Shown here one piece after another: positions 1,765-9,637 of a DNA stretch of 9,773 bases (its first letter is position 1; each line of letters starts with the position of its first letter). Where the stretch lies: the NCBI GenBank assembly GCA_964586355.1, contig CAZPGO010000014.1, positions 1 through 9,773 of the forward strand, written 5' to 3'. The translations under genes were made by a program, and so were the position numbers. Under the pieces are notes generated by a model that saw nothing but the letters and a program-made list of their open reading frames with translations, ran no database searches and was not told the DNA's origin. This DNA comes from an uncultured archaeon (GTDB lineage: Archaea > Iainarchaeota > Iainarchaeia > Iainarchaeales > CSSED10-239).

Positions 1765-2442
1765 TTATATTCTTGATTTAATAGAAATCTTTTGACTTTT
1801 AGAATCATTTTTGTCAACAATAAAAATAACATCAGCAGATCCTAAAAAAACACCTGTCTCTAAAACACCTGGTATATTTTTTACAGAGTACTCAAAGTCT
1901 TCTAAAGTTATATTTTTATCTAATGTTATTCTTGCAAGATAATGACCTGTTTCTGTCTTTATAATGTTACCGTCAATATCTAAAACAACTCTTGCAAGAC
2001 CATAGCTTTGTAGATTTAAAACGGTTCTTTCCCAAGCAAAACTACTAATCTCCACAGAAATATCTTTTGAGATTTTGTCTACAACATCTGCTTTATCACA
2101 AATAGTTATTAGACTCAAAGCTGATTGAGAGATCATTTTATCTCTTATAAAAGATCTAGTTTCTTTTTTTATAAAATTATAATCAAAGTCTACTTGATCT
2201 ACAAACTCAATACCAACATCAATTTCTCTATCATTTAAAGAAACAACCTTTTGCCCAAGATTTGCTAACTGAGCTGCTTGCCGTGAGGTTGTTGCAACAA
2301 AAAAAACCTCTTTTTTTTTAAATAAAAAATATTTGACTAGTTCATCAACAAATTCTGTATCATATCTACTAGTACCAACAGCTATGATATTTCCATTACT
2401 TATATATTCATCAAATTCTTTTATTATTGCTTGTATATTCAT
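1765..2442 (-). CDS. rpiA: Ribose-5-phosphate isomerase A-like protein (divergent)
   Basis: 225-aa ORF with an ATG start. By eye it is collinear with archaeal RpiA. IIAVGTSRYD sits where GLGTGST is expected, VDQVD where DGAD(E) is expected, and IKKETRSFIRDK where KGGGG...(Q)EK is expected. The C-terminal IPGVLETGVF matches the diagnostic GVVE(T/N)G(L/I)F motif. Confidence 0.65.
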   Translation of the reverse strand: MNIQAIIKEFDEYISNGNIIAVGTSRYDTEFVDELVKYFLFKKKEVFFVATTSRQAAQLANLGQKVVSLNDREIDVGIEFVDQVDFDYNFIKKETRSFIRDKMISQSALSLITICDKADVVDKISKDISVEISSFAWERTVLNLQSYGLARVVLDIDGNIIKTETGHYLARITLDKNITLEDFEYSVKNIPGVLETGVFLGSADVIFIVDKNDSKSQKISIKSRI

Positions 2443-2493: not shown

Positions 2494-2559
2494 TACACAA
2501 TGATGATAATTGAACACCTGCTGAATAAAATATGATGATAGATGGGCGGGCTGAGTGTA
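2494..2559 (+). ncRNA. Archaeal box C/D sRNA (2'-O-methylation guide) with two guide regions
   Basis: Layout: uacac-a-AUGAUGA (C, 2500-2506), a 14-nt spacer (2507-2520), CUGA (D', 2521-2524), 7 nt, AUGAUGA (C', 2532-2538), a 12-nt spacer (2539-2550), CUGA (D, 2551-2554), then gugua. A 5-bp terminal stem pairs 2494-2498 with 2555-2559. All four boxes match consensus perfectly. The element sits in an ORF-free gap, has a TATA-like box about 26 nt upstream and a T7 run 4 nt downstream. The D' spacer is complementary to the 23S gene in this window. Confidence 0.8.
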
Positions 2560-2754
2560 TTATTTTTTTAATTTTTCAAATTCTAATTTTGTTAATCTTT
2601 TATTTAACAAATCTAACTTAGAATCCATAACTTTACTACTTACTGATTCTCCAATTGGCAATTTTCTAATTCTTTGTTTTTCTAAAGTTATTAAAAATAT
2701 ATTACCTAATAAAAAAACAAAAATTAAAATTAATAATATTAATAATAACACCAT
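2560..2754 (-). CDS. Small membrane-anchored protein (N-terminal TM helix plus charged coiled-coil-like tail), hypothetical
   Basis: 64-aa ORF with an ATG start 4 nt after the stop of the upstream ORF (2761). A GTGA Shine-Dalgarno-like element lies 6-9 nt upstream. The sequence is a hydrophobic MVLLLILLILIFVFLLGNIFLI segment followed by a K/E/L-rich tail. It is short, so the coding status is not certain. Confidence 0.55.
   Translation of the reverse strand: MVLLLILLILIFVFLLGNIFLITLEKQRIRKLPIGESVSSKVMDSKLDLLNKRLTKLEFEKLKK
2563..2569 (+). terminator. T7 run directly after the C/D sRNA; candidate terminator
   Basis: TTTTTTT starts 4 nt after the sRNA terminal stem. It lies inside the last codons of the convergent minus-strand ORF 2560-2754. 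Confidence 0.3.
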
Positions 2755-6638: not shown

Positions 6639-9637
6639 CCTTTGATTTTAACTCGGACCCTTAGTATCAGAAAACTGAAATGGTCGTTTTGACACTTCCA
6701 TCTTACATTACTGACCTATCAAACCGGTCTTCTACCGGAGTCCTCGTTCTATATCTCTATAGAAATGGCTGTCTCGTCTTAGGGACTGCTTCGAGCTTAG
6801 ATGCTTTCAGCTCTTATCAGTTAAAGCGTAGCTACCCGACAGTGCCTTGTCAGACAATCGGTACACCAGAGACTTCGACACACCGTTCCTCTCGTACTAA
6901 ATGTATCTTTCCTTCAGACAGCCTGCGCTGCCAATAGATAGGAACCAAACTGACTCGCATCGTTCTTAACCCAGCTAACGTACGGCTTTAATGAGTGAAC
7001 ACCTCCACCCTTGGCTATTTGTGCCCAGCCAGGATGCCGTGAGCCGACAGCGAGGTAGCAAACCGCGGGGTCGATGTGAACTCTTACCCGCGACAACCCA
7101 GTTACCCCCAGGGTAAATTTACTGTCAGACTAGGCCCCCACTAATAGGGACACTAGCGTTCGCTAGACCCAAGTTTCCTTCCTGCGTTTCGTGCTTTGAG
7201 AAACACAGTTAAGCATGCTTTTGGTCTTGTCCTCTACAGCAGATTTCTGACCTGCTTGAGCATACCTTTGGACACCCCTGATATTCTTTCAGGGGTGTAC
7301 CGCCCCAGTCAAACTACCTGATCAAATGTTGTCCGCTTACAAAGAAGCGTTGAGTCATGGTTTTCATACTAGATGGTGTTACATTGTTGTCTATCTAGCC
7401 CCTAGCGAGACTAGCATCAGCGACTCCCATCTACACTCTATAGTATAAAAAACATAACAACATCAGACTGTAGTAAATCTCCATGGGGTCTTATCCTCCC
7501 ATTGGCAGTTCGTGGCGTATTCACCACGTGTGCAAGTTCACTAGGTTTAAATTAGGGACAGCGGAAATCTCGTTACTTCCTTGGTGCAAGCCGACAATTA
7601 ATCGGCAAGGTATTACGCTACCATGAGAGCCTCAGAGTTAGGCCCGCTCTTTACCAGCGCTTGGATCAGTTGAACCTGATATTCACGTACTAGCAGTGAG
7701 CAGAGGTCAGTGACTATACACACCGTTTCCGGCTAGCAGTCACCTGTGTTTTTGCTAAACAGTCGGACTTCCCTAGTTACTAAGACTTACAGTTTACTCA
7801 ACCGTAAGCACCCCTTATACCTAAGATACAGGGCTAATATTGCCGAATTCCCTTAATTTAATTATCCTATTACGCCTTAGCTTACTCAGCTAGAGACACC
7901 TTTCTCGGTTCTTGGTACGAGCAATAAACCACATTATAGTTCTCTTTTCAAGGGCTCTTGGCCTCGATAAAAGATTTCTCCCATTTGTATCTTTAACCTA
8001 TTTCTCATCATTATGATCCTCCATAGGTCTATAATACTTAGATGTGCAGACAAGCACACTCCACCTTGCCAAAAGCGTTAAAAACTATACTTGCGTTACC
8101 ACACGTGATTTATTGGTACAGGAATATGAACCTGTTTCCCTTTCGATGTTTGCCGTATTACGGGTCATCTTAGGATCGACTTACCCTTAGCTAAAGATTA
8201 GTGCTAAGGAACCCTTGCCCCTTCGGCGGAAATGATTCTCACATTTCTTTGATGTTACTATCGCGAGGATCCATATCTTTGGCAGATCCACAGGATATTA
8301 CTACCCTACTTCTGCTCTACCAAAGCACCTATCTATCAGATCACAAATTGCTTGTGCTCTGTGATATCGGTGGTTAGTTTAGCCCCGTTAATTTTCAGCG
8401 CATCTGTCCTAGATTGGTGAGCTATTACGCACTCTTTAAAGGATGGCTGCTTCTGAGCCAACCTCCCAATTGTCTGAGGACAAAAACTACTTTCCAGTTA
8501 ACACTTAACTAACACTTAAGGACCTTAATCACAGTCTGGGTTTTTTCCCTCTCGGAGAAGCAGCTTACCCGCCCCCCCCGACTCCAGCCTTCAACGACAA
8601 TAATACATTCGGAGTTTGACAAGAAAGCCGAAAATTTCTTCCCGATACTTTCTAATCAGTATCTCTACCATATTATTAGTCTCCAGCCAGGCTATCCTAA
8701 GGGATATCTCGATAGGAACCCGCTATCACCAGATTCGATTACTCTCTCAGTACTATTCCCAAGTCACACAATCAGTTAGACTAGAACTGCTTCGGACCTC
8801 CAGCAACCAGTCGGTCGCCTTCATCCTGCTCAGGAATTTATCATCTGGTTTCGGGTCATTTTCTAGTGACTAAAGGCACAGTTAATACCTCTTCCCTGAA
8901 TTAAAAATCTGCGGAAAATCGGTTTCCCTACGACACCATGATGTAACATCACTTCGTCTTGCCACTAAAAAATACTCCCTCGCCCGTGCTTCGTGACGGA
9001 TAGTGTAACCCTGTTCCCATAACACTTGCTTTTGCAGTTACCCACAATCACTCATGTGCTATGATCAAAACTTTCAGGCCACACCCGAACAGTAGCCAAT
9101 TAATTTCAAGTGCTTGAATTCACCCTCCGTTAGGAGAACTTTTCAACTTTCCCTCTCGGTACTCATTCGCTATCGGTCTTGTAGTATATTTAGGATTAGC
9201 AGTAAGTGCCTGCCATACTTCTGACGCGATATCCAACGCGCCATACTCTTGGTACTTAAAAATCTTCTCAAATATCTTATACCTACGGGACTATCACCCT
9301 CTTTGGTTAAGCTTTCCAGAAAAATTCGGTTTTGAATTCAAGAAGTAAATAAGCCAAAACACCCCACATGTCTTTTATATTACTATAAAAGATTCGGTTT
9401 GTCCTTTGCCGTCTTCGGTCGACCCTACTACCGGCATCACTATTGTTTTCTTTTCCTCTAGGTACTAAGATGCTTCAATTCCCTAGGTTCCCTTCCAGAC
9501 TTTAACATCTGGATAATTCGAGCATCTTGGGATCAAAGGCTGCATGCGCCTACCCCAAGCTTATCGCAGCTTGCCACGCTCTTCATCGGTCTACAAGCCA
9601 AGTTATCCATTAATTGGCTCTATATAAAATCAAAGTT
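6639..9637 (-). rRNA. rrl: 23S (LSU) rRNA, archaeal type, apparently complete (about 3.0 kb; ends +/- 15 nt)
   Basis: The reverse complement contains several conserved LSU elements. The 5' domain has GAUGAAGAGCGUGGCAAGCUGCGAUAAGC (9559-9587). The GTPase-centre region has GCAGCCAUCCUUUAAAGAGUGCGUAAUAGCUCAC (about 8417-8450). The PTC has GGGGGUAACUGG (about 7097-7109) and CCUCGCUGUCGGCUC (7041-7055). The A-loop has GGUGUUCAC (about 6995-7003). The sarcin-ricin loop is AGUACGAGAGGAAC (6885-6898), and GCUGAAAGCAUCUAAG lies at 6796-6811. Helix 1 pairs 9625-9635 with 6640-6650. GC content is visibly much higher than in the flanks. Confidence 0.97.

Follow-up and report, generated by a model that had tools for sequence, protein, structure and literature searches.

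The 9,773-nt window, by which the whole stretch of DNA under analysis is meant, is archaeal, and positions 2494–2559 of its forward strand very probably encode an independently transcribed box C/D sRNA that guides 2'-O-methylation of C1402 in the 16S rRNA and of U2552 in the 23S rRNA (E. coli numbering). In the proposed mechanism the sRNA would assemble with L7Ae, Nop5 and fibrillarin, and its D guide would pair with positions 1399–1407 of the nascent 16S rRNA, presumably before helix 44 closes. The ribose of C1402, the P-site cytidine, would then be brought into the active site of fibrillarin for methyl transfer, and the D' guide would do likewise at U2552 in the A loop of the 23S rRNA.

Architecture and genomic setting of the sRNA

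The coordinates of the sRNA and of the features around it are given in Table 1. From 5' to 3' the sRNA contains UACAC, a single unpaired A, AUGAUGA, a 14-nt spacer, CUGA, a 7-nt linker, a second AUGAUGA, a 12-nt spacer, CUGA and GUGUA. The UAGAUGGGCGGG spacer and box D are located where a first-pass annotation of the window had placed them. As expected of an archaeal box C/D sRNA, an RUGAUGA box lies near the 5' end, a CUGA box lies near the 3' end and the termini form a stem (k-turn). Internal D' and C' boxes are present and the C'-to-D spacer is exactly 12 nt, while the C-to-D' spacer is 14 nt (13–15 nt in relatives) compared with the usual 12. Both guides are complementary to rRNA, each with its target nucleotide opposite position 5, counted upstream from box D or D', and the host encodes L7Ae, Nop5 and fibrillarin.

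When the region was scanned permissively with Rfam, a dozen C/D families matched exactly the 2494–2559 stretch, and this was the best generic C/D match both of the region and of the whole genome. No curated Rfam C/D family reached its gathering score at the sRNA: sR2 (RF01139) gave 28.1 bits against 42, snoPyro_CD (RF00095) 23.8 against 45 and snoU43 (RF01174) 18.2 against 45. Judged from its sequence, the sRNA is a member of the archaeal box C/D class that falls outside the sR2, snoPyro_CD and snoU43 families.

The sRNA sits in a 117-bp gap between the start of an RpiA-like gene (1765–2442, minus strand) and the end of a small open reading frame (2560–2754, minus strand). The assembly comprises 904 kb at 27% G+C in 54 contigs and is estimated to be 86% complete; the 5' third of the 16S rRNA gene and roughly 14% of the genome are absent from it.

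Table 1. Coordinates of the sRNA, its elements and associated features in the window
Feature	Positions	Strand	Basis or remark
Box C/D sRNA	2494–2559	+	Box order and terminal stem read from the sequence
Terminal stem, 5' arm UACAC	2494–2498	+	Pairs with 2555–2559
Box C, AUGAUGA	2500–2506	+	UGAUGA invariant, first base A or G in homologue alignment
D' guide spacer, 14 nt	2507–2520	+	Positions 2–10 from box D' (2511–2519) pair with 23S rRNA
Box D', CUGA	2521–2524	+	Sequence and homologue alignment
D'-C' linker (K-loop), variable	2525–2531	+	Length and sequence free among homologues, guides fixed
Box C', AUGAUGA	2532–2538	+	Sequence and homologue alignment
D guide UAGAUGGGCGGG, 12 nt	2539–2550	+	Positions 2–10 (2541–2549) pair with 16S rRNA 1399–1407
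Box D, CUGA	2551–2554	+	Invariant in homologue alignment
Terminal stem, 3' arm GUGUA	2555–2559	+	Stem covariation
TATA-like element TTTATAAA	2464–2471	+	Starts 30 nt ahead of the sRNA; probable promoter
Seven-T run	2563–2569	+	Sequence
tRNA-Met	1555–1631	−	Annotated in the window
23S rRNA	6641–9634	−	Rfam
D' guide target, 23S A loop (helix 92)	6994–7005	−	Alignment to E. coli rrlH; 23S by Rfam

The D guide and C1402 of the 16S rRNA

The 3' two-thirds of the host 16S rRNA gene were found on a separate contig (G000:C13). Alignment to E. coli K-12 rrsH identified the segment CACACCGCCCAUCAAGCC as the equivalent of positions 1395–1412, with A in place of G1405 (C13:17094). The helix-44 partner of this nucleotide, position 1496, is U instead of C. 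Positions 2–10 of the D guide form nine contiguous Watson-Crick pairs with 1399–1407 of this 16S rRNA and position 12 pairs as well. G2546, at position 5, lies opposite the C1402 equivalent (C13:17097), so that the N+5 rule and the rrsH alignment agree on the selected nucleotide, and U2543, at position 8, lies opposite A1405.

The first-pass annotation had proposed this target and this selected nucleotide from the universal consensus, and both were borne out in the organism's own 16S rRNA. Its nine pairs at positions 2–10 are indeed contiguous, but the U:G1405 wobble that it included is in fact a U:A pair, since the host carries A1405. The annotation had also held that divergence within 1398–1408 would count against the target; such divergence is confined to 1405, where the change from G to A removes the wobble and strengthens the case. 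It was also right that the D spacer lacks a complement in the 23S rRNA, where the longest paired run is 6 nt, and that the D and D' guides share one register, both pairing at positions 2–10.

The D guide/16S duplex has a predicted stability of −20.3 kcal/mol and was the most stable found for this guide across both rRNAs. At 9 bp the duplex is short, which speaks against its use as a guide, though it is rich in G+C. When the D guide was shuffled, 71 of 2000 sequences (3.5%) still gave a run of 9 nt at some point in the combined rRNA and tRNA sequence (6.5 kb), and the corresponding value for the D' guide was 7.7%; complementarity alone is for this reason only suggestive.

The frequency of 3.5% among shuffled D guides, together with the missing 5' third of the 16S rRNA and the missing 14% or so of the genome, leave some room for the D guide to have its true target in another RNA, such as a tRNA, an mRNA, the 5S rRNA or an unassembled sequence, with an incidental match to 16S. 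Several observations make this very unlikely. The 9-mer CCGCCCATC occurs within the 904-kb assembly only in the 16S rRNA gene and, in antisense, in the sRNA itself. In a same-family relative whose D guide and D' guide core are identical to those here, the complete 16S rRNA contains no better site, and among the tRNAs no match exceeded a run of 8 even when wobbles were included. Finally, guide position 8 tracks 16S position 1405 across phyla, as described below.

The D' guide and U2552 of the 23S rRNA

Positions 2–10 of the D' guide form nine contiguous Watson-Crick pairs with positions 2631–2639 of the LSU rRNA. Alignment to E. coli rrlH places the U2552 equivalent in the A loop at window position 7001, opposite position 5 of the guide. 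The duplex, at −14.1 kcal/mol, was the top-ranked site for the D' guide across both rRNAs, and the guide core GAACACCUG was unchanged in 13 same-family loci. Matches of the D' guide to tRNA T-arms were rejected as targets, as position 5 was mismatched and the runs were only 6 nt long.

In structures of C/D RNPs the space between the Nop5 caps takes up about 10 bp, counted from position 2, which matches the 2–10 register of both guides. C1402 and U2552 are two of the four positions at which the ribose is methylated in E. coli rRNA (PMC11542601).

The terminal stem and probable signals for transcription

The terminal stem was examined over 31 distinct homologues. Pairing was found in 84.5% of cells compared with 48.9% in shuffled alignments, none of 500 shuffles equalled the observed value, and pairing dropped to 29–45% when the partner strand was slid. 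The inner three pairs were formed in 31/31 homologues with 4–6 pair types each. On this alignment the terminal stem is evolving by compensatory change.

In 21 of the 31 homologues, whose flanks are otherwise unrelated, the sRNA is preceded by a TATA-like motif that begins 26–31 nt upstream. The element TTTATAAA is therefore probably the promoter of the sRNA, and the seven-T run downstream is probably an archaeal oligo-T terminator; T-runs also follow several of the homologues, as judged by eye. These signals point to a sRNA that would be transcribed independently of its neighbours. The ATATAT tract that immediately precedes the stem was rejected as a promoter because transcription would then begin within the guide; the element at about −28 is the better fit.

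The neighbouring RpiA-family gene (Pfam PF06026, 94 bits; 1765–2442, minus strand) is divergently oriented, and about 26 nt separate its start codon from TTTATAAA, which is palindromic. The two genes may share this element as a bidirectional promoter.

Conservation among relatives

The C'-guide-D motif was recovered in 18/41 close relatives and in 100/215 genomes of a phylum sample, while a reversed control pattern had zero matches in any of the 215 genomes. Both guides are invariant within the family, and the D'-C' linker between them is variable in both length and sequence. Other families of the order retain the D guide but have a different D' guide, and the C1402 guide is therefore the constant element of these RNAs.

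This distribution bears on whether the sRNA is functional at all. Boxes and complementarity might in principle have arisen by chance in AT-rich intergenic DNA, and the failure of every Rfam family to reach its gathering score, sR2 at 28.1 bits against 42 being the best, would fit such an origin. It is effectively refuted by the retention of the motif in about 100 genomes against zero control matches, by the compensatory changes in the terminal stem, by invariant guides beside a freely varying linker and by the positioned TATA-like element.

Several variants of the motif were observed. At L004, L005, L018, L020 and L059–L068 the C1402 guide is joined to a different D' guide, often CUGACGAUGAC, for which the host 16S rRNA has only a partial match of 7–8 nt, in helix 34 around E. 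coli position 1061. The guides of family f21 (L053–L058), GAUAGGCGGG or GAUUGGCGGG, are mismatched opposite C1404, which lies 2 nt away from the target, although the 16S rRNA is unchanged; the D' guide of this family, GUUAACCCCUG, is without a clear target. In G109 (C49), G162 (C54) and G056 (contig ends) two or three copies of the motif lie within a few kb of one another or at contig ends, a pattern suggestive of local duplication of the gene. A shorter element was found in Altiarchaeales and Altarchaeum (L078, L081, L101 and L103), consisting of a single UGAUGA, a 12-nt C1402-type guide and CUGA between complementary flanks (AAUGA/UCAUU), close downstream of a tRNA 3' end. This element may be a half-size, single-guide C/D RNA.

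Covariation of guide and target at position 1405

Across the order, A1405/U1496 was present in 26/26 16S loci (L022–L048), with a single exception genome carrying G1405/C1496, and every guide of the order has U at position 8. When species-representative genomes were scanned for the motif with C at position 8, 33 matches were obtained. Nine of these are bacterial, all without a box C, and 24 are archaeal. About 19 of the archaeal matches are complete C/D sRNAs with box C, D' guide, box C', guide, box D and complementary termini, and come from Thermoplasmatota, DHVE2/Aciduliprofundum, Micrarchaeota and one Methanobacteriota MAG. The relevant 16S segment was found for four genomes of other phyla with C8 guides, and all four have G1405.

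The alternation of C8:G1405 and U8:A1405 is a compensatory double change and is the strongest evidence for the predicted pairing that the sequences provide, pointing to a guide that has co-evolved with its rRNA target at 1405. The C8 guides of other phyla may have originated independently; this leaves the pairing argument unhurt but means that the change is not strict covariation within a single lineage. Such compensatory change, with exceptions at the edge positions 2, 3 and 7, places the sRNA with the guides of small-subunit C1402, a group that includes snR70, U43 and Iho sR11.

Compensation at guide positions 2, 3 and 7 was also considered and rejected. Families with A at position 2 or 3, or with A or U at position 7, keep C1399, C1400 and C1404, and lineages with U1400 keep G3 as a G·U wobble. 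These positions are without covariation and were therefore left out of the support for the pairing. Constraint may be relaxed at the edges of the duplex, or some guide copies may be decaying. Within the phylum one C8 guide was found, in G212, whose assembly lacks a 16S rRNA gene. Among G1405 lineages of the same class (f33, f34 and f37) no convincing guide was found; a single match in G214 was rejected as a C1402 guide, because its spacer is 8 nt long and does not fit the target.

The same pairing could serve another purpose, with the sRNA binding 1399–1407 mainly or only as a chaperone or timer for the folding of helix 44 and the decoding centre, and with C1402 left unmethylated or partly methylated. 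Some of the families described above tolerate uncompensated mismatches near the target, and binding of sRNAs across helices 44/45 has been proposed as an assembly checkpoint in Nanoarchaeum equitans, while Cm1402 lies below 50% in Ignicoccus hospitalis (PMC5389701). Against a role in folding alone, the register sets C1402, which is methylated in all three domains, exactly at position 5, the second guide sets U2552, another universal Nm site, at the same position, and fibrillarin is kept in a 0.9-Mb genome. A role confined to folding is considered unlikely, and a chaperone role would in any case be compatible with guided methylation of C1402 and U2552 and not an alternative to it.

Protein machinery and guide RNA repertoire

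The genes for fibrillarin (173.6 bits) and Nop5 (130.7 bits) adjoin one another on contig C33, and the gene for L7Ae (95 bits) is on contig C15. RsmH and RsmI, the bacterial enzymes for m4Cm1402, were not found in the assembly; as this is 86% complete, both absences are provisional. FtsJ/RlmE gave marginal partial matches only, at 25–27 bits.

Three pattern scans of progressively lower stringency recovered the sRNA at 2494–2559 as the only C/D locus in the genome. With the generic Pyrococcus C/D model the whole genome gave E = 0.004 at the sRNA compared with 3.07 for the next match. The homologue was likewise the only match with E < 1 in G012, which is a single contig and 94% complete, and in G136, while G144 and G036 had at most two C/D matches each with the same model. 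The sRNA thus appears from these scans to be the sole C/D sRNA of a reduced genome, which is a reading and not a result because the sensitivity of the models is limited. Candidates from the relaxed scan on contigs C21, C26, C28, C32, C43 and C52 were rejected; they lie in coding-like AT-rich sequence, are without C'/D' boxes and stems, and fail the scan for boxes plus stem.

The Nop5-fibrillarin operon and L7Ae are kept in these genomes despite one or two detectable C/D sRNAs at most.

A broader reading, to which we give somewhat less than even weight, is that L7Ae, Nop5 and fibrillarin are kept in the order to serve what is essentially a single guide RNA. This RNA would, in the family of the host, direct methylation of both C1402 (P site) and U2552 (A loop), a minimal RNA-guided methylome that would stand in for RsmI and RlmE, and the guide would have tracked the order-wide swap from G1405-C1496 to A1405-U1496.

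Comparison with known guide RNAs and enzymes

The closest general counterparts are the archaeal C/D sRNAs of Pyrococcus (RF00095) and of Sulfolobus and Pyrobaculum (sR2, RF01139). These share with the sRNA the C/D'/C'/D order, the 12-nt C'-to-D spacer, a short terminal stem, a length of roughly 60 nt, rRNA guides that follow the N+5 rule and the dependence on L7Ae, Nop5 and fibrillarin. The sRNA differs in scoring below every curated gathering cut-off and in its C-to-D' spacer, which is 13–15 nt in the family of the sRNA. In contrast to the hyperthermophiles, which have dozens of C/D sRNAs, the host has a low-GC genome of roughly 0.9 Mb with only one that is detectable.

C1402 has been reported as a target in two other archaea. 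In N. equitans Cm1402 was found by RiboMeth-seq, but with "no suitable sRNA candidate", and for I. hospitalis it was proposed that Cm1402 is guided from the D box of Iho sR11, but the methylation there was less than 50% and was left off the map (PMC5389701). The target nucleotide in the archaeal 16S rRNA is the same in all of these cases, and Iho sR11 is likened to the present sRNA by its target and not by its sequence. Here the guide is clear, conserved and co-varying, and the methylation is predicted.

Cm1402 is conserved in the three domains and corresponds to Cm1703 in human, Cm1645 in Arabidopsis and, as the first-pass annotation had noted, Cm1639 in yeast (PMC11542601). AtU43 is the guide for Cm1645 in Arabidopsis, and the listed sites that have been mapped experimentally include an archaeal Cm1369 (PMC11542601). 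Like U43, AtU43 and snR70, the sRNA would direct a C/D RNP to the homologous P-site cytidine. Some similarity between the U43 guides and the present one is unavoidable, since the target is near-universal, and the Rfam snoU43 model gave a weak match of 18.2 bits. Compared with the sRNA, the eukaryotic RNAs are longer, and their pairing partner is G1405 and not A1405.

The same two ribose methyls, Cm1402 and Um2552, are installed by bacterial RsmI (with RsmH) and by RlmE/FtsJ. These are stand-alone protein enzymes, whereas here both sites would fall to a single guide RNA. In bacteria and haloarchaea RlmE is responsible for Um2552, and in yeast snR52 and Spb1 are (PMC11542601).

The locus brings no new mechanism. 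What appears to be new is a clear, conserved and co-varying candidate guide for C1402 in Thermoplasmatota and in an archaeal order with small genomes of low G+C, together with the predicted combination of a C1402 guide and a U2552 guide in one RNA that is apparently the only C/D sRNA of its genome. A reduced genome would thus cover C1402 and U2552 with one guide RNA, which bears on the question of which rRNA modifications are indispensable. The sRNA supplies a clear predicted guide for archaeal Cm1402, which is without a guide in N. equitans, and offers a clean natural case of co-evolution between a guide sRNA and the rRNA that it targets.

The A1405-U1496 pair is in addition an order-wide variant of the decoding centre. 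G1405 is the m7G site of aminoglycoside resistance; the position is in contact with aminoglycosides and is covered by the universal primers 1392R/1406R, and the swap may therefore affect drug binding and primer coverage in this order.
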